A stretch of DNA of 7,909 bases from a virus (Duplodnaviria > Heunggongvirae > Uroviricota > Caudoviricetes), in IMG/VR virus record IMGVR_UViG_2778261498_000001, positions 1 to 7,909 of that record; one strand, written 5' to 3'. Made by a program: the position numbers and the translations under genes. The notes beneath the pieces are model-generated. The model saw only the letters and a list, made by a program, of their open reading frames with translations, did no database searches and was not told the origin of the DNA. Positions 1-7,909 of the stretch are shown one piece after another (within the stretch, counting starts at the first letter, position 1; every line of letters begins with the position of its first letter).

Positions 1-2337
1 GGCGCGCCGTTCCGCTACAGCTTCAGCGCCCTGAAGGACCGCCATAATGCCGTTGAGGTGAACTGGATTGACCCGGACAACGGCTGGGAGACGGCGACAG
101 AGCTTGTGGAGGACACGCAGGCCATTGCCCGTTACGGTCGTAACGTCACGAAGATGGATGCCTTTGGCTGTACCAGTCGGGGGCAGGCACACCGCGCCGG
201 GCTGTGGCTGATTAAAACAGAACTGCTGGAAACGCAGACCGTGGATTTCAGCGTCGGCGCAGAAGGGCTTCGCCATGTACCGGGCGATGTTATTGAAATC
301 TGTGATGATGACTATGCCGGTATCAGCACCGGTGGTCGTGTGCTGGCGGTGAACAGCCAGACCCGGACGCTGACGCTCGACCGTGAAATCACGCTGCCAT
401 CCTCCGGTACCACGCTGATAAGCCTGGTTGACGGAAGTGGCAATCCGGTGAGTGTGGAGGTCCAGTCCGTCACCGACGGCGTGAAGGTGAAAGTGAGCCG
501 GGTTCCTGATGGCGTTGCCGAGTACAGCGTGTGGGGGCTGAAGCTGCCGACGCTGCGCCAGCGCCTGTTCCGCTGCGTGAGTATCCGTGAGAATGACGAC
601 GGCACGTATGCCATCACCGCTGTGCAGCATGTGCCGGAGAAAGAGGCCATCGTGGATAACGGGGCGCACTTTGACGGCGACCAGAGCGGCACGGTGAATG
701 GTGTCACGCCGCCAGCAGTGCAGCACCTGACCGCAGAAGTCACCGCAGACAGCGGGGAATACCAGGTGCTGGCGCGCTGGGATACGCCGAAGGTGGTGAA
801 GGGTGTGAGCTTTATGCTTCGCCTGACCGTGGCAGCGGATGACGGCAGTGAGCGGCTGGTCAGCACGGCCCGGACGACGGAAACCACATACCGATTCACG
901 CAACTGGCGCTGGGAAACTACAGGCTGACAGTCCGGGCGGTAAATGCGTGGGGGCAGCAGGGCGATCCGGCATCGGTATCGTTCCGGATTGCCGCACCTG
1001 CAGTGCCGTCGCGGATTGAGCTGACGCCGGGCTATTTTCAGATAACTGCCACGCCGCATCTTGCGGTTTATGATCCGACGGTACAGTTTGAGTTCTGGTT
1101 CTCGGAAACGCGGATTACCGATATCAGGCAGGTTGAAACCACAGCGCGCTATCTTGGCACGGCGCTGTACTGGATAGCTGCCAGTATCAATATCAGGCCG
1201 GGCCATGATTATTATTTTTACATCCGCAGTGTGAACACCGTTGGCAAATCGGCATTTGTGGAGGCTGTTGGCCAGCCGAGTGATGACGCATCCGGCTATC
1301 TGGATTTTTTCAAAGGAGAGATAGGGAAAACCCATCTGGCTCAGGAGTTGTGGACGCAGATTGATAACGGTCAGCTTGCGCCTGACCTGGCTGAAATCAG
1401 GACGTCCATTACGGGTGTCAGCAATGAAATCACGCAGACCGTCAATAAGAAACTGGAAGACCAGAGTGCAGCGATCCAGCAGATACAGAAGGTTCAGGTT
1501 GATACAAATAATAACCTGAACAGCATGTGGGCTGTGAAGCTGCAGCAGATGCAGGACGGACGCCTTTATATCGCGGGTATCGGTGCCGGTATTGAGAACA
1601 CCCCCGACGGTATGCAGAGTCAGGTGCTGCTGGCGGCAGACAGGATTGCGATGATTAATCCTGCGAATGGCAACACAAAGCCGATGTTTGTTGGTCAGGG
1701 CGATCAGATATTTATGAATGAAGTGTTCCTGAAATATCTGACGGCTCCCACCATTACCAGCGGCGGTAATCCTCCGGCATTTTCCCTGACACCGGACGGG
1801 CGGCTGACGGCAAAAAATGCCGATATCAGCGGTAACGTGAATGCGAACTCCGGGACGCTCAACAACGTCACGATTAACGAGAACTGCCGGGTTCTGGGAA
1901 AACTGTCCGCGAACCAGATTGAAGGTGATCTCGTTAAAACAGTGGGCAAAGCTTTCCCCCGTGACTCCCGTGCACCGGAACGGTGGCCATCAGGGACCAT
2001 TACCGTCAGGGTTTATGACGATCAGCCGTTTGACCGGCAAATTGTTATTCCGGCGGTGGCTTTCAGCGGTGCCAGACATGAACGGGAGAATAGCGATACT
2101 TATTCGTCATGCCGCCTGATAGTGAAGAAAAACGGGGCTGAAATTTATAACCGAACGGCTCTGGATAATACTCTGATTTACACGGGTGTTATTGATATGC
2201 CTGCAGGCAGTGGCGTAATGACACTGGAGTTTTCGGTATCAGCATGGTGGGTAAATGGCTGGTATCCCACAGCAAGTATCAGCGATTTGCTGGTTGTGGT
2301 GATGAAGAAAGCCACCGCAGGCATCAGTATCAGCTGA
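1..2337 (+). CDS. J: Host specificity (central tail fibre / tip) protein J, C-terminal ~779 codons; 5' end lies upstream of the window
   Basis: Frame 1 is open from base 1 to the TGA at 2335-2337, so the ATG at 58 is internal. The translation is long and non-repetitive and matches what I recall of lambda J, including its C-terminal receptor-recognition segment (…[13 protein letters not shown]). Immunoglobulin/fibronectin-like segments also appear, e.g. …[24 protein letters not shown]…. Confidence 0.9.
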
Positions 2338-2404: not shown

Positions 2405-3004
2405 ATGCGTAAATTATGTGCTGTTATTCTGTCCGCAGTAGTCTGGCTGGTTGCCGCTGGTACGCCAGCGAGCGCAGCAGAGCATCAGTCCACACTAAGC
2501 GCCGGGTATCTTCAGGCCCATACTGATATGCCAGGCAGTGATGACCTGAAGGGCATTAACGTGAAATACCGTTATGAATTTACGGACACGCTGGGGCTGG
2601 TGACGTCATTCAGTTATGCCAATGCCAAAGATGAGCAAAAAACGCATTACAGCGATACCCGCTGGCATGAAGATTCAGTGCGTAACCGCTGGTTCAGCAT
2701 GATGGCGGGGCCATCTGTACGCGTGAATGAATGGTTCAGTGCTTATGCGATGGCAGGTGTGGCTTACAGCCGTGTTTCGACGTTCTCCGGGGATTATCTC
2801 CGCGTAACTGACAACAAGGGGAAAACGCACGATGTGCTGACCGGAAGTGATGACGATCGCCACAGCAACACGTCTCTGGCGTGGGGAGCTGGCGTGCAGT
2901 TTAACCCGACCGAATCCGTGGCCATTGATATTGCTTATGAAGGCTCCGGCAGTGGCGACTGGCGCACTGACGGTTTCATCGTGGGTGTCGGTTATAAGTT
3001 CTGA
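2405..3004 (+). CDS. lom: Ail/Lom/PagC-family outer membrane beta-barrel protein (lambda Lom homologue)
   Basis: 199-aa ORF with an N-terminal signal peptide (MRKLCAVILSAVVWLVAAGTPASA/AE). Alternating hydrophobic beta-strand pattern and a C-terminal …GSGSGDWRTDGFIVGVGYKF ending in aromatic-X-Phe, as in lambda Lom. GAGAGG Shine-Dalgarno about 7 nt upstream of the ATG. Position between J and stf matches lambda. Confidence 0.9.
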   Translation: MRKLCAVILSAVVWLVAAGTPASAAEHQSTLSAGYLQAHTDMPGSDDLKGINVKYRYEFTDTLGLVTSFSYANAKDEQKTHYSDTRWHEDSVRNRWFSMMAGPSVRVNEWFSAYAMAGVAYSRVSTFSGDYLRVTDNKGKTHDVLTGSDDDRHSNTSLAWGAGVQFNPTESVAIDIAYEGSGSGDWRTDGFIVGVGYKF

Positions 3005-3060: not shown

Positions 3061-3068
3061 GAGTGGAT

Positions 3069-5426
3069 ATGGCAGCAGTAAAAATCTCAGGTGTGCTGAA
3101 AGATGGTGCGGGAAAACCAATACAGAACTGCACTATTCAACTGAAGGCAAAGCGTAACAGCACCACGGTACTGGTGAACACGGTGGCCTCTGAAAATCCT
3201 GATGAAGCCGGGCGTTACAGTATGGACGTTGAGTATGGCCAGTACAGCGTCATCCTGCTGGTTGAAGGTTTTCCGCCTTCACATGCCGGGACCATTACCG
3301 TCTATGAAGGTTCCAGTCCGGGGACGCTGAATGATTTTCTCGGTGCCATGACGGAAGATGATGTCATGCCGGAGGCATTGCGTCGTTTTGAGGAAATGGT
3401 GGAAGAAGCGGCACGCAACGCCGAAGCCGCCTCTCAGAGCGCAGCGGCGGCAAAGAAATCCGAAACTGCAGCGGCATCATCGAAGAACGCGGCGAAAACC
3501 TCAGAAACGAATGCAGCTAACAGCGCACAGGCGGCAGCGACCTCACAGACTGCATCGGCAAACTCCGCGACAGCAGCCAAAAAATCAGAAACCAACGCGA
3601 AAAACAGCGAGACAGCCGCAAAGACGAGCGAAACCAACGCAAAGTCCAGCCAGACGGCAGCGAAGACCAGCGAAACGAATGCCAAAGCCAGTGAAACTGC
3701 GGCAAAAAACAGCCAGGTTGCAGCAGCCGAAAGCGAGAGCGCGGCAGCCGGTTCTGCGACTTCAGCAGCTGGATCAGCAACTGCTGCGGCTAACAGCCAG
3801 AAAGCTGCGAAGACGAGTGAAACTAACGCAAAGTCCAGCCAGACGGCAGCGAAGACCAGCGAAACGAATGCCAAAGCCAGCGAAACTGCGGCAAAAAACA
3901 GTCAGGATGCAGCGGCCCAAAGCGAGAGTGCCGCAGCTGGTTCTGCAAGTGCGGCAGCTAATAGCCAAAAAGCTGCAAAAACCAGTGAAACTAACGCAAA
4001 GACGAGTGAAACAAAAGCAGCAGCCAGCAAGACAGAAGCAACGTCAGCCGCAACAAGAGCAGAGAATGCAGCCCGGATTGCAGAAGATGCCGCTGATCCT
4101 GCTTCTGTCCCTCCGCTTCCTGATATCTGGCTACCCTTGAATGATTCTCTGGAAGCGATAACAGGGTATGCCCCGGGCTATAAAACAATAACCATCGGCA
4201 GTGATGAAATCACTGTACCTGTTAATGGCATATGCCAATTTAGCCGCGCTTCATCAGCAACTTATATTGATAAGTCCGGGCATATTACCGTAGCAGGTAA
4301 TAACGTTCCTCGTTTTGAAAAATATGGTTTGCTGATAGAGAATCAGCGAACAAACATGTTCGTAAATAGTTTTAATCCTGATGCGTGGAATAAAAGCGGT
4401 GGTATATCTGTAACATCATCAACAGATGAATTTGAGTTTAAATATGGACGTTTCACAGTAGGAAGTGAGATAGCAGGAACGACAACAGGGAGAAATATAT
4501 GCACAGTTGCTGGTAATAAAGGCATAGATGTGACTGGCGATGATCAATACAGTAAAGGTCCGTATGTTACCGCGTCGTTCAGGGTAAGAAGTGATCTCAA
4601 TGTTCGCGCACGTATCCGTTTTGAAGGGTATAACTCGGAAGGATACACTTTCCTTTGTGACGCCTATTTGTCATTACAGACTCATGAACTACAAATTACG
4701 GGTGGTAATGCCCAGCTATTAACAGCAAACTTTGAAATCGACCCTGGTAGTGGATGGATATATTTTCAGGCAACACTGAAATGTCTGCCAGAATGGGGAA
4801 TGGTTGGTACGCAGCTGCAAATTGCAGCCGACAGAGCAGTGGGGGCTTTTGCAACAGGTGACTGGATAGAAGTAACCACCCCGCAATTCGAGTATGGTGC
4901 CTGTGCAACTTCCTTTATCATAACGACAACAGAGCCAGCGACTCGTGCATCAGATTTATGTAAATTTCCGCTGATGAAAAATATGTATACCATGCCTTTT
5001 ACGTTCATGGTGGAAGTCCATAAAAACTGGTTTATTTCTCATAATGCTGCACCGCGAGTAATTGATACAGAAAACCATCAGTCAGGTGCTCCATTTATCA
5101 TGGGATTTGGCTCTTCTGGAACTATCAGTCAGGACGGTTATCCCTATTGTGATATAGGCGGGGCTAACCGACGTGTATATGAGTCATGCGGAGTAAGAGA
5201 TCTCGTTATGGGATTCAGGGTTAAGGCTGACGGCATGACATGCTCATTTGCAAATAAGCATATAAGCACAGAAACAAAAACAGTATGGAAATATATTCGT
5301 GAAGCTGCTGTGATTCGTATCGGGGGACAAACGACGACAGGATTACGACACCTTAATGGTCATATAAAAAACCTCCGTTTCTGGAACAGAGCATTGTCAG
5401 ATACGCAGCTTAAGGAATACGTATAA
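3069..5426 (+). CDS. stf: Mosaic side tail fibre protein: lambda Stf-like N-terminal domain, Ala/Ser/Thr-rich repeat shaft, and an unrelated lower-G+C C-terminal domain (possibly concanavalin-A/LamG-like)
   Basis: N-terminus MAAVKISGVLKDGAGKPIQNCTIQLKAKRNSTTVLVNTVASENPDEAGRYSMDVEYGQYSVILLVEGFPPSHAGTITVYEGS… matches my recollection of lambda Stf. GGAG lies 6 nt upstream of the ATG at 3069; the ORF track's GTG at 3063 is in frame but less likely. The C-terminal ~445 residues differ in composition and end in …LRHLNGHIKNLRFWNRALSDTQLKEYV, which resembles the terminal strand of LamG/ConA-like jelly-roll domains. The His-rich HxH motifs of the lambda Stf C-terminus are absent. Confidence 0.85.
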   Translation: MAAVKISGVLKDGAGKPIQNCTIQLKAKRNSTTVLVNTVASENPDEAGRYSMDVEYGQYSVILLVEGFPPSHAGTITVYEGSSPGTLNDFLGAMTEDDVMPEALRRFEEMVEEAARNAEAASQSAAAAKKSETAAASSKNAAKTSETNAANSAQAAATSQTASANSATAAKKSETNAKNSETAAKTSETNAKSSQTAAKTSETNAKASETAAKNSQVAAAESESAAAGSATSAAGSATAAANSQKAAKTSETNAKSSQTAAKTSETNAKASETAAKNSQDAAAQSESAAAGSASAAANSQKAAKTSETNAKTSETKAAASKTEATSAATRAENAARIAEDAADPASVPPLPDIWLPLNDSLEAITGYAPGYKTITIGSDEITVPVNGICQFSRASSATYIDKSGHITVAGNNVPRFEKYGLLIENQRTNMFVNSFNPDAWNKSGGISVTSSTDEFEFKYGRFTVGSEIAGTTTGRNICTVAGNKGIDVTGDDQYSKGPYVTASFRVRSDLNVRARIRFEGYNSEGYTFLCDAYLSLQTHELQITGGNAQLLTANFEIDPGSGWIYFQATLKCLPEWGMVGTQLQIAADRAVGAFATGDWIEVTTPQFEYGACATSFIITTTEPATRASDLCKFPLMKNMYTMPFTFMVEVHKNWFISHNAAPRVIDTENHQSGAPFIMGFGSSGTISQDGYPYCDIGGANRRVYESCGVRDLVMGFRVKADGMTCSFANKHISTETKTVWKYIREAAVIRIGGQTTTGLRHLNGHIKNLRFWNRALSDTQLKEYV
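3572..4010. repeat. Nested in-frame tandem repeats inside stf: 42-bp (14-aa) units inside a 189-bp (63-aa) higher-order repeat
   Basis: Peptide units AAK(T/K)SETNAK(S/A/N/T)S(Q/E)T recur many times. At DNA level, 3621-3651 (aagacgagcgaaaccaacgcaaagtccagcc) recurs at 3810-3840 (aagacgagtgaaactaacgcaaagtccagcc), an offset of exactly 189 bp, with near-identity continuing for over 120 bp. Confidence 0.8.
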
Positions 5427-5695
5427 TGCGGGATATAACATTACGATTCGATAACAGAGAACAGTTTAACGCAATTGTATATGACAGTGGCCTGTTCAGT
5501 CTTGAAGAAGAAAATGGGGTTCTTGTTGATGTTATTGGCTGCATTATTGATTACGAGGAGCCAGAAAACGAAAGATGTACAGGCATTGATCGCGGTGGTT
5601 TTTTCGTAAACATGAGGATTGTTGATGGCAGTAAAAACATATCTTCTTTAATGCCTTTCATTACGACAGATCAGCATGTAAGGACATGGGCTTAA
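5426..5695 (+). CDS. Hypothetical 89-aa acidic protein, translationally coupled to stf; function unknown (possibly fibre-associated chaperone or adaptor)
   Basis: The ATG overlaps the stf stop codon by one base (TAATG at 5424-5428). AAGGAA Shine-Dalgarno at 5412-5417, 8 nt upstream. Non-repetitive sequence with the same low G+C as its neighbours. The next gene starts 12 bp after its stop. I recognise no family. Confidence 0.55.
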   Translation: MRDITLRFDNREQFNAIVYDSGLFSLEEENGVLVDVIGCIIDYEEPENERCTGIDRGGFFVNMRIVDGSKNISSLMPFITTDQHVRTWA

Positions 5696-5707
5696 TGGAG
5701 TAAGACA

Positions 5708-6748
5708 ATGGTTACAAAAACAGTAATTCCTGATGACATCAAAACGCTAAAATCCGATGTTAGTAAACTACAAAACGATCAAGGAAGCTACGCAACAAAA
5801 TCATATGTAGACAGCAAAGATGAAACCGTTGGTGACTGGTCTGCTTCATGGTATCAGCAGGTATTGCCAACTAGCGGAGCTATATTTGGGCGAAAACTTC
5901 GCTCAACTCACAGGACGGCAGGTGTTGAGGATGCGTATTGCGAACTATACCTTAAAAAATGGATAGACAGTCCAGGGAACGCAATGGCGCGCCTTAACCT
6001 GAACGATAACGGTGAAAATATTTGCTGGGATTTTACCAACCTTTACGGCGGAACAATGATCTTCCCTGGTACTTCAGGTTATCTGAAAATGGGGAACTGT
6101 CTCATGTCGTATGGTGTGCGGGGAAGTAACGCGCTTATTAAGTTTGATAATACAGACACATTACAAATCAAATACGCTAATCATGGGTCAACCATGACAT
6201 TAAACACGCAAGGTACGGCGTATTCTGGTGTGTCGACGTTATTATGGGGAAATTCCAGTCGTCCAGTTGTTTATGAAATTAGGGATGATGGCGGGCTTTT
6301 TTTGTTTTATGCACAAAGGAACCCAGATAAAACCTATCAGCTTGAGATAAACGGGCCATGCAAGGCAACATCATTCGACCAGGTGTCGGACAGAGATCTT
6401 AAAGAAAACATTCAGGTTATTGATAATGCCACTGAGCGCATCAGATTAATGAATGGGTATACTTACCGTCTCAAGTCTAATGGTATGCCTTATGCTGGCG
6501 TTATTGCGCAAGAGGCACTTAATGCAATCCCTGAATCAGTTGGTAGCACAATAAAGTACAAGAGCGGGGACAATGGGTCTGATGGAGAAGAGGGAGAAAG
6601 ATACTATACCGTCGATTACTCAGGCGTAACGGGTTTGCTTGTTCAGGTAGCCAGAGAGTCAGACGACAGGATAACAGCACTGGAAGAAGAAAACGCAGAA
6701 TTAAGACAAAGATTATCTGCAATTGAGGCGGCGCTTGCGTCTAAATAA
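5708..6748 (+). CDS. Tail fibre / tail spike-like protein with a C-terminal intramolecular chaperone, autoproteolytic (peptidase S74-type) domain
   Basis: GGAG at 5697-5700, 7 nt upstream of the ATG. The C-terminal ~120 aa carry what I recognise as S74 hallmarks: …QV-SDRDLKENI… (Ser codon at 6386-6388; Ser/Lys dyad at the predicted self-cleavage site), …YAGVIAQEALNAIPE…, …YTVDYSGVTGLLVQVARE…, and a terminal heptad-like helix ITALEEENAELRQRLSAIEAALA. The N-terminal ~226 aa look like a short helical stretch followed by a beta-rich globular domain. Confidence 0.8.
   Translation: MVTKTVIPDDIKTLKSDVSKLQNDQGSYATKSYVDSKDETVGDWSASWYQQVLPTSGAIFGRKLRSTHRTAGVEDAYCELYLKKWIDSPGNAMARLNLNDNGENICWDFTNLYGGTMIFPGTSGYLKMGNCLMSYGVRGSNALIKFDNTDTLQIKYANHGSTMTLNTQGTAYSGVSTLLWGNSSRPVVYEIRDDGGLFLFYAQRNPDKTYQLEINGPCKATSFDQVSDRDLKENIQVIDNATERIRLMNGYTYRLKSNGMPYAGVIAQEALNAIPESVGSTIKYKSGDNGSDGEEGERYYTVDYSGVTGLLVQVARESDDRITALEEENAELRQRLSAIEAALASK
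6386..6745 (+). other. Predicted S74-type intramolecular chaperone domain, expected to be released by self-cleavage N-terminal to the Ser encoded at 6386-6388
   Basis: Motif SDRDLKENI plus the downstream conserved blocks described for the fibre-like CDS. Domain boundary is from motif position only. Confidence 0.65.
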
Positions 6749-6754
6749 TATTAA

Positions 6755-6778
6755 GGGGCCGAGCGCCCCGTTTTATTG
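6755..6778 (+). terminator. Possible weak intrinsic terminator between the fibre-like gene and the membrane-protein gene
   Basis: GGGGC (6755-6759), loop CGAGC, GCCCC (6765-6769), then GTTTTATT. The stem is short and the T-run is interrupted. Confidence 0.4.
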
Positions 6779-6790
6779 GGTAGGATGAAA

Positions 6791-7078
6791 ATGGATATAA
6801 CACCTTTCCTTCATGCGCTTTGTGCTGTGGCTGCGCAGCTACTGATTGGTCTTTTTACCGGGAACTGGGCTTACGGAGCGATAGCCGGTTGTACGTTCTT
6901 CATTGCGCGTGAACACACCCAGGCAGAATATCGCTGGATTGAAATGTTCGGGCATGGCAAGCGGATTAACATGCCGTGGTGGGGTGGTTTTGATCCACGT
7001 GCATGGGATGTGGCAAGCCTGATGGATTTTGCTGTGCCGGTGGTGGCGTGTCTGCTGATCTGGATGTTGATCCGTTAA
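6791..7078 (+). CDS. Small integral membrane protein (~95 aa, about three predicted transmembrane helices), unknown function; candidate prophage cargo gene
   Basis: Hydrophobic segments FLHALCAVAAQLLIGLFTG, WAYGAIAGCTFFIA and VASLMDFAVPVVACLLIWMLI. AGGA at 6782-6785, 5 nt upstream of the ATG at 6791; in-frame alternatives are ATG 6785 and the ORF track's TTG 6776. No lipobox. G+C is higher than the preceding two genes. It is the last gene before the att arm. Confidence 0.6.
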   Translation: MDITPFLHALCAVAAQLLIGLFTGNWAYGAIAGCTFFIAREHTQAEYRWIEMFGHGKRINMPWWGGFDPRAWDVASLMDFAVPVVACLLIWMLIR

Positions 7079-7095
7079 ATATAAAAAGTAAAAAG

Positions 7096-7127
7096 CCGCA
7101 GTAACTTGTCATGACAGGATACTGCGG
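7096..7127. other. 32-bp near-perfect palindrome 18 bp after the membrane-protein stop; terminator hairpin or protein-binding site
   Basis: CCGCAGTAACTTGTCA | TGACAGGATACTGCGG pairs at 15 of 16 positions (one A/A mismatch, one G-T wobble). Followed by TTGGCTGGTT, so no clean U-tract. Confidence 0.4.
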
Positions 7128-7341
7128 TTGGCTGGTTAACTTTCGATAGTGCGAGTATTGAATAATTTCCAGCCGTTACCGATTTTATATAACTGCAGTG
7201 GAATTATTCAACACACAGGCAAAACGGAATAAGCTGAGAAAAAAGCGTGCTTTCCCAATCTGGGGCAAATCACGTCTGAATGACACCTGAAAACAGGTGG
7301 TGGACTCAAGAAGGCTTGGAATATTCTTCTTTAATGTTATG

Positions 7342-7354
7342 TAATTCATTGATT
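7342..7354 (-). promoter_or_regulatory. IHF-consensus match in the presumptive attR P-arm
   Basis: TAATTCATTGATT fits YAANNNNTTGATW exactly (complement of WATCAANNNNTTR). It overlaps the first copy of the direct repeat TTGATTTTTCG (7349-7359). Confidence 0.4.
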
Positions 7355-7396
7355 TTTCGTGTACGATTTTAAGACATTTATTCCAAGAAAAATTTT

Positions 7397-7409
7397 TAAC
7401 TCTTTGATT
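7397..7409 (-). promoter_or_regulatory. Second IHF-consensus match in the presumptive attR P-arm
   Basis: TAACTCTTTGATT fits YAANNNNTTGATW exactly. It overlaps the second copy of TTGATTTTTCG (7404-7414), 55 bp from the first and about 20 bp from the tRNA-derived core. Confidence 0.4.
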
Positions 7410-7426
7410 TTTCGACTCTGTATCAT

Positions 7427-7488
7427 CGGTCTCGAAAACCGGAGTAGGGGCAACTCTACCGGGGGTTCAAATCCCCCTCTCTCCGCCA
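7427..7488 (+). tRNA. Partial tRNA-Ser(CGA) gene, 3' portion only (anticodon arm through CCA); presumptive att core / prophage-host junction
   Basis: CGGT-CTCGAAA-ACCGG (anticodon loop with CGA), long variable arm AGTAGGGGCAACTCTACC (class II tRNA), T-arm GGGGG-TTCAAAT-CCCCC, then acceptor 3' strand TCTCTCC-G-CCA. No complementary 5' acceptor strand (GGAGAGA) or D-arm exists upstream, so it is a fragment. It matches my recollection of the E. coli serU 3' half. Confidence 0.75.
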
Positions 7489-7770
7489 CTTTATCAATGA
7501 CTTATCTCCCGACTTCCCGCCTTGCTTTTCCTAAACAGAACAATCGTAGAATATTCTTGAAGGGTTAGATCGTCACTGTTTTCTGTTCGATACTGTGACA
7601 TTCAGCACTTGATTCGCTATGGATCTGACAGGAAGGTTTCGAGCGAAAATCTGCAATTATTCAGTCGTTTTCTTATCGGTCACCATTATTCTTTTAGACA
7701 TTGATCCTACAAAGCTGCCGCAAAGTTGGTGGTGGGAACTGAAGTTGCGTAGAGAAGGGGTCAATAATTG

Positions 7771-7809
7771 AGCAAAAAAAGGAACGCGGCCGTCAGATTA
7801 AAGCCGCGG
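7771..7809 (-). terminator. Possible intrinsic terminator on the minus strand in the flank
   Basis: On the minus strand: CGCGGC, a 12-nt loop, GCCGCG, then TTCCTTTTTTTGCTC. The stem is GC-rich with a strong T-run; the loop is long. Confidence 0.4.
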
Positions 7810-7909
7810 GACAAAGTCCATAATTTCCAAGAGTTGTTGAATTTCCCAGCTTTTTTGAAAGCCTTTGTATCATACTAACAAGTAAAAAAGGTTTAAATAC
7901 CAAAATTAA

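Follow-up and report, generated by a model that had tools for sequence, protein, structure and literature searches.

Williams, in 2002, reportedly described sublocation classes of the tRNA genes used by tyrosine integrases, among them a class in which the crossover takes place in the anticodon loop. For the phage side of an attachment site, the elements are named here after those of lambda attP, P1-H1-P2-X1/X1.5/X2/F-H2-COC'-H'-P'1-3 (Laxmikanthan et al., PMC4880445). In the authentic lambda attP, which phage ev099 carries together with lambda int and which was scanned in the same way as the sites described below, P1 (+) lies at -133, H1 at -118, P2 (-) at -104 and H2 at -40, and past the core H' lies at +40 on the opposite strand, with P'1-3 (+) at +63, +71 and +82. 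The gene serU, which encodes tRNA-Ser (CGA) in E. coli, is known from STEC genomes as a site of prophages and is a frequent one in E. coli, where its prophages include those carrying Stx2d and LT-II (PMC8767318).

The DNA analysed here (the window) is the whole stretch of 7,909 nucleotides from IMG/VR virus record IMGVR_UViG_2778261498_000001. With a probability of roughly 85%, positions 7305-7426 are read as the P arm at the attR of a lambdoid prophage in serU, preceded by a non-conserved spacer (7140-7304), with a mechanism that follows the lambda model. As an attachment arm of lambda type it is ordinary, and the searchable literature, which is incompletely covered, yielded no dissection of its integrase (Int) family or of this attP.

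Prophage/chromosome junction

The late genes of the window are lambda-like and lie on the plus strand (Table 1), and the region after them is AT-rich (35.5% G+C). The side tail fibre gene contains, at window positions 3400-4030, long imperfect tandem repeats rich in Ala/Ser/Thr (recurring ...KTSETNAKSSQTAAKTSETNAKASETAAKNSQ...). The empty site of E. coli K-12 MG1655 aligns to positions 7427-7909 only (97.5%), where zinT and msrQP are the chromosomal genes downstream of the junction, and positions 7427-7488 correspond to the 3' 62 nt of serU, so that the junction comes with a core held in common with the empty bacterial site. ARAGORN did not find a complete tRNA in the window, and an Rfam scan of 6700-7909 returned just partial tRNA-like or T-arm matches over the serU fragment, all below the gathering scores.

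The attL was read from relatives standing in for the window's own, namely M7424 and ST131 strain 2822, whose junctions are 99.4-99.7% identical to that of the window. In both genomes an intact serU occupies the other prophage end, and the 3' end of a tyrosine integrase gene (int) is 27 bp away from it; the 67-aa ORF upstream of int is of the DUF4224/excisionase type (phrog_1266). PGAP calls int frameshifted in both genomes; its 341-aa ORF is full length relative to relatives. Since the K-12 match starts at 7427 and the intact serU with int lies at the other end, 7426|7427 is attR, a true phage/chromosome junction beside the 3' half of serU; because this junction is on the tail-gene side, the phage DNA at it is the P arm, as the first-pass annotation had proposed. 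The arm is present in 968 of 5426 complete E. coli genomes (~18%).

In E. coli GN02100, a prophage end (locus L095, 7389 onward) is 100% identical to window positions 4100-7488. Directly after the serU CCA, the usual chromosomal flank is replaced by another element, which carries DUF6387, HTH and H-NS-family genes. This arrangement suggests that a second element integrated in tandem at or near the tRNA 3' end.

Table 1. Window features and elements of the serU-type attachment site. Positions refer to the window, and offsets are counted from the core start in the attP lineages compared.
Feature	Position	Strand	Offset in attP lineages	Remark
J	58-2337	+
lom	2405-3004	+
Side tail fibre	3063-5426	+
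Tail-fibre protein with S74 chaperone domain	5708-6748	+
100-aa phage ORF (phrog_1443)	6776-7078	+		function not known
Non-conserved mosaic spacer, including imperfect inverted repeat	7140-7304	.
Conserved P arm, from just left of P1 to the core	7305-7426	+		shared boundary in attP variants
P1, candidate Int arm-type site, direct	7315-7327	+	-110 to -113, direct (phage's own arm word)	CTTGGAATATTCT; 11-mer in common with P' repeats
H1, IHF-like site	7342-7354	-	-84 to -86, orientation as in window	AATCAATGAATTA; exact WATCAANNNNTTR match, then T tract
H1-P2 spacer TTTCGTGTACGATTTTAAGACATT	7355-7378 (24 bp)	.		no other free stretch in the arm
P2, candidate Int arm-type site, inverted	7379-7391	-	-47 or -48, inverted (arm word; all attP lineages examined)	TATTCCAAGAAAA; 13-mer in common with P'
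H2, IHF-like site	7397-7409	-	-29 to -31, orientation as in window	AATCAAAGAGTTA; exact consensus match, then T tract
Core: serU 3' 62 nt, anticodon stem to CCA	7427-7488	+		K-12 identity from 7427
Interval holding strand exchange (overlap)	7427-7445	+		allele segregation
Anticodon loop CTCGAAA	7431-7437	+
Third exact IHF consensus, TATCAATGACTTA	7492-7504	+		chromosomal B' flank just past the tRNA end
H', near-consensus IHF site		opposite	just past the tRNA end	serU types only
P'1-3, three tandem arm words			about +46, +56, +69, direct
AGAATATTCT, chromosomal flank	7548-7557	.		present at the empty K-12 site

Core and crossover interval

The sequence becomes identical to attB at 7427, which is the anticodon stem's second base. 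Phage-borne copies of serU, at attL and in every true attP, carry G at the equivalent of 7446 and C at the equivalent of 7457, and the window itself has the bacterial alleles (A at 7446, T at 7457). Across the loci compared, all 46 attL and 6 attP copies with the P' type of this phage carry the G/C alleles, and every attR or attB copy with E. coli flank carries the A/T alleles. As the variable-arm alleles always go with the right flank, exchange always takes place left of 7446, and together with the attB identity from 7427 this confines the crossover to 7427-7445; strand exchange is probably in the anticodon loop. The site thus has the features of the anticodon-loop class of tRNA sites, with a core that takes in the tRNA gene from the anticodon stem to its 3' end and a crossover within the stem-loop. 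The two substitutions (A to G at 7446, T to C at 7457) compensate each other and turn an A-U pair of the variable arm into G-C. The tRNA-Ser(CGA) expressed in lysogens is therefore a variant one, and the displaced bacterial 3' half stays at attR.

Related attP sites and arm words

With Int as the tblastn query, phages at 47-61% identity were retrieved, and true attP sites were identified in ST64B (Salmonella, serU), KpF5 (Klebsiella), Chris1 (Citrobacter), BUCT708 (serT-type core) and mEp390 (a different tRNA). Further attP contigs came from IMG/VR: two with the arm of the window (L026 and L042), four variants (L047-49 and L058) and two distant ones (L080 and L091). In L026 and L042 the P arm, core, P' and int are contiguous, which makes each a real attP. 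The ten attP lineages (Int identity 47-100%) have one layout, kept within 1-3 bp (Table 1). In this comparison, which had been recommended at first pass, IHF-like sites and arm words keep fixed positions in sequences that are otherwise unalignable. The arm words themselves differ by phage (TTGGAATA, TGAGAAAA, TTGGTATA, TTAGAATA, AAGAATA and TTCGCCAT). mEp390 has four P' arm words, placed further downstream, and BUCT708 has no P1 match with at most one mismatch at the expected position.

Other candidates for a related attP were set aside. The Int of vB_EcoS-689R5 and vB_EcoM-606R7 is 99% identical, and both records are prophage cut-outs with bacterial flank that hold attL only. About ten IMG/VR loci (L077, L079, L082-84, L086, L087, L090 and L066; Int ~60%) have cargo genes between int and att. 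Phages ev099, PhiR70_1 and mEp332 carry lambda int and lambda attP, and their serU copy has the A/T alleles and 276 bp of chromosome, which makes it a fossil attR and not a working attP. This fossil corresponds to window positions 7232-7766, lies in the b region (4001-4535 of locus L001 in ev099 and 4001-4535 of locus L002 in PhiR70_1; also in mEp332) and is made up of P-arm sequence from 7232 on, the serU 3' fragment and 276 bp of E. coli DNA, followed by an AraC-family gene and IS2 fragments. It looks as if a phage captured a prophage junction, in the way specialised-transducing phages do, and later exchanged its int module.

The attP core of BUCT708 (locus L013) is what we take to be the 3' part of enterobacterial serT (tRNA-Ser UGA). 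Its source, Stenotrophomonas phage vB_SmeS_BUCT708, has an Int 61% identical to the E. coli serU Int, and the host assignment looks odd. Phage Evi (locus L012) has a serT-like core and TTGGTATA arm words in a site that is flipped as a whole relative to int, so that its three tandem repeats are on the far side from int.

The attP of the phage was reconstructed by joining the P arm of the window to the attL of M7424. The longest direct word common to P and P' is the 11-mer CTTGGAATATT (7315-7325), which includes the P1 core word TTGGAATA at 7316-7323, and the longest inverted one is TATTCCAAGAAAA, the reverse complement of TTTTCTTGGAATA, at P2. TTGGAATA thus occurs at 7316 (+), at 7379 (-) and in three tandem copies in the P' arm, as CTTGGAATTA, CTTGGAATATTTTC and TTGGAATATTTTC, which overlap the end of int; repeats of the arm type, distinct from the core, are therefore present in both P and P'. 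The first-pass annotation, which had expected integrase arm sites in this region, had not identified these words as such sites, neither the direct copy nor the inverted one at 7379-7391. The three tandem repeats sit inside the C-terminal coding end of int (...ENIPRKYSK*; about 33110-33200 of locus L006), and in L058 a fourth P' repeat alters the Int tail.

IHF-like sites

Two exact matches to YAANNNNTTGATW had been reported beside the core, and both are there, at 7342-7354 (TAATTCATTGATT) and 7397-7409 (TAACTCTTTGATT). A short IHF consensus in an AT-rich region counts against reading these matches as sites. Dinucleotide shuffles of 7140-7426 (n=5000) gave an expectation of 0.042 exact matches, with at least two in 9 of the 5000 shuffles. 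The whole 7,909-bp window holds three exact matches against 0.37 expected, all of them within 7342-7504 (163 bp). The third, in the chromosomal flank, is present in K-12 too, and phage P' arms have a one-mismatch IHF site (ATTCAAnCACTTA) in the same place and orientation. About the first 16 nt past the CCA are alike in the E. coli flank and in several P' arms.

At H1 (-84 to -86) a site with at most one mismatch is found in eight of the nine other attP lineages, and at H2 (-29 to -31) in seven of nine; the matches are weaker in ST64B (two mismatches at both positions) and in KpF5 (two mismatches at one). Nine of the 12 IHF positions in the six distant lineages are within one mismatch of the consensus (background 0.1% per position); this count, like the binomial P values that go with it, measures conservation and not independent recurrence, as the lineages share ancestry. 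Once the relatives are aligned by anchored position, conservation outside the arm words is limited to two blocks, TAA.t.aTTGA (H1) and TAa.t...TGaTt (H2), and the substitutions at H2 of close variants fall in N positions and after TTGATTTT, sparing the consensus positions. Both matches at attR coincide exactly with the two positions at which related attP sites keep an IHF-like site. At the level of sequence, the two IHF-consensus matches are real, unlikely to arise by chance and conserved in position, and they place putative IHF sites between the arm-type sites and the core.

IntA, another integrase, which is chromosomal, reportedly recombines ST64B attP with attB in vitro when neither IHF nor Fis is present (PMC12455584), so IHF dependence should not be assumed for every recombinase acting at a serU-type site.

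Sequence left of the conserved arm

About 60% of the interval flagged at first pass lies outside the conserved site. The variant attP contigs L047-49 and L058 (Int 95-99% identical) and the SerU-LTIIb prophage share window sequence only from about 7305-7311 rightward, and many E. coli matches begin at 7304-7305; other phages have sequence in common with the window only left of 7187, or right of 7232 or 7311. Three sharp mosaic breakpoints (7187-7191, 7232 and 7305-7311) are found within the 125 bp left of the attachment site, and sharing among phage groups stops at them or starts from them.

It is unlikely that 7140-7304 has a function of its own, as a minus-strand gene (7185-7349), a promoter, or an int retroregulator of the sib/tI kind formed with the hairpin at 7094-7127. 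The gene would correspond to an ORF annotated as hypothetical in ev099, but this ORF has no Pfam or PHROG match, and the breakpoints at 7187 and 7232 lie inside it; a small minus-strand ORF at 7346-7489 likewise has no Pfam or PHROG match. A promoter-like match is present on the minus strand (7211-7182), but such matches are no more numerous than in shuffles. A U run comes after the hairpin (minus strand, dG -14.8 kcal/mol, z -3.4), which in the attP configuration would lie past the attachment site downstream of int, where lambda has tI/sib; in other phages, however, it goes along with the module of the 100-aa ORF and may be the terminator of that gene. Finally, the whole stretch is conserved in the true attP contigs L026 and L042, which speaks for such a function, and replaced in the attP variants with the same Int, which speaks against it.

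The inverted repeat noted in this stretch contains an exact 10-bp pair, TTGAATAATT (7158-7167 and 7202-7211), whereas the 13- and 12-mers first described pair only with a 1-nt indel. Its frequency in shuffles is marginal (P about 0.035 for non-overlapping arms with a gap of at most 60), and its left arm has 1-2 uncompensated substitutions in L026 and L042. Placed at -269 to -216 relative to the core start, it falls left of about 7305, where attP variants with the same Int have unrelated sequence, and it is not part of the conserved attachment site.

Direct repeat and palindrome

The direct repeat TTGATTTTTCG overlaps the two IHF matches, as had been described (7349-7359 and 7404-7414). It seems very improbable that it is a protein-binding repeat in its own right, whether an integrase arm-type site or an excisionase site. 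In favour of such a role, the repeat is exact over 11 bp (P about 0.017 in shuffles), TGATTTTT occurs once, inverted, in P' at +35, and an overlap with Xis sites is possible. The repeat is not independent of the IHF matches, though, because it contains TTGAT: in close variants the copy at H2 becomes TTGATTTTGCG or TTGATTTTACG with every consensus position kept, distant relatives retain only TAA....TTGA followed by varied A/T tracts, and the tandem P' words, which occupy the place where arm-type sites are expected, are TTGGAATA. As a separate element it therefore dissolves outside the IHF consensus, and by its sequence TTGATTTTTCG is best described as the IHF half-site TTGAT with a T tract, and not as an integrase site.

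The palindrome AGAATATTCT, said to occur on both sides of the core, is exact at 7548-7557 (not 7549-7558), whereas the sequence at 7319 reads GGAATATTCT. Only GAATATTCT (7319-7327) is common to both copies, and the left one belongs to P1. The right copy is chromosomal DNA that the empty K-12 site also contains, which rules it out as a phage arm site, and it is consistent with chance. The E. coli flank past serU was also considered as a decayed P' arm or int remnant, an origin that would account for a palindrome on either side of the core, and this was rejected: tblastn found no int remnant in it (all E above 0.2), and relic arm words at the P' offsets in the flank were not significant, as 433 of 5000 shuffles did as well.

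The view that all of these motifs arose by chance in AT-rich intergenic DNA and serve no site-specific function is hardly tenable, for although the base composition, the marginal inverted repeat and the chromosomal right-hand palindrome would agree with it, the excess of exact IHF matches, their clustering around the core and the fixed positions of IHF-like sites and arm words in otherwise unalignable attP sites all speak against it. Conservation excludes chance for 7305-7426; for the inverted repeat and the right-hand palindrome, chance is the best reading.

Proposed function of the arm

On the model of lambda, attP of the free phage would be made up of the P arm, the 62-nt 3' segment of serU and a P' arm that extends into the 3' end of int. 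The tyrosine integrase, as a heterobivalent protein, would use its N-terminal domain to contact TTGGAATA at P1, at P2 and in the three tandem P' copies, and its C-terminal domains to contact the inverted repeat that the anticodon stem provides. Bends made by IHF at H1, at H2 and at H', which comes just after the tRNA, would carry arm-bound Int to the core, where strand exchange within 7427-7445 would remake an intact serU at attL. Integration would use the full attP. In the prophage, the arm would serve for excision together with the DUF4224-type excisionase, mainly through P2 and H2, and P1 and H1 would not be required until the phage next integrates. The binding of Int, IHF and Xis and the allotment of sites to the two reactions are thus predicted by analogy.

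The Int of these prophages aligns with lambda Int over residues 1-313 (MGRRR..LPPN.Y at residue 1; E 1.7e-12). Its N-terminal 60 residues have no match to a Pfam arm-binding family, and their homology rests on the lambda Int alignment. They are the most divergent part of Int, and identity within them follows the arm word and not the core specificity: M7424 and ST64B both have a serU core with unrelated arm words, and the N-terminal identity is 31%, whereas M7424 and BUCT708 have different cores with related words, and the N-terminal identity is 48%.

In the position-anchored comparison of relatives, no conserved repeat assignable to an excisionase was seen in the arm. The spacer between H1 and P2 may possibly, at low confidence, be an excisionase or A-tract region; relatives show there a loose GTGT...A-tract pattern and no conserved block.

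The base-level map of the site should help to call prophage boundaries exactly and to design integration vectors or assays of excision and integration, and it supplies paired Int N-terminal domains and arm words for studying how arm specificity evolves.

Comparison with known systems

Every element found at the serU-type site has the order and orientation of its counterpart in lambda, and in both systems the P arm is on the tail or b-region side and so ends up at attR. The differences are in dimensions and in parts. In lambda a 15-bp core lies in the gal-bio intergenic region; here a tRNA gene supplies its 3' 62 nt as the core, and the crossover falls in the region of the anticodon stem-loop. 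The present P arm is also the shorter one (P1 at -111 versus -133 in lambda), the arm word TTGGAATA is unrelated to the lambda word GTCACTAT, the P' arm sites overlap the coding end of int, and the excisionase is of the DUF4224 type. The gap between P2 and H2, which in lambda measures ~55 bp and holds the Xis and Fis sites, is 5 bp here. A tentative and rather doubtful extension of this last point is that serU-type sites are a compact variant of the lambda intasome, in which P2 abuts H2 and leaves no room for an excisionase between P2 and the core-proximal bend. If so, the DUF4224-type excisionase would act from 7355-7378, distal to P2, or without a dedicated site, and the P-arm geometry for the control of directionality would differ from that of lambda.

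The attP sites of ST64B, KpF5 and Chris1 belong to the same Int family as the site in the window (57-59% identity), and their elements lie within 1 bp of the same positions. Their cores also start in the serU 3' half, and the core is identical in KpF5 and Chris1 and has the Salmonella allele in ST64B. They differ in the arm words (TGAGAAAA or TTGGTATA) and in the Int N-terminal domains (31-48% identity), and ST64B differs further in its weaker IHF matches.

With respect to the anticodon-loop class of tRNA integration, the locus is a typical case, and no difference was found: attP carries the tRNA 3' part starting in the anticodon stem, the tRNA is remade at attL, and the 3' fragment is left at attR. 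In concept, the site adds nothing beyond the lambda paradigm, which is here kept position for position in a tRNA-targeting integrase family.
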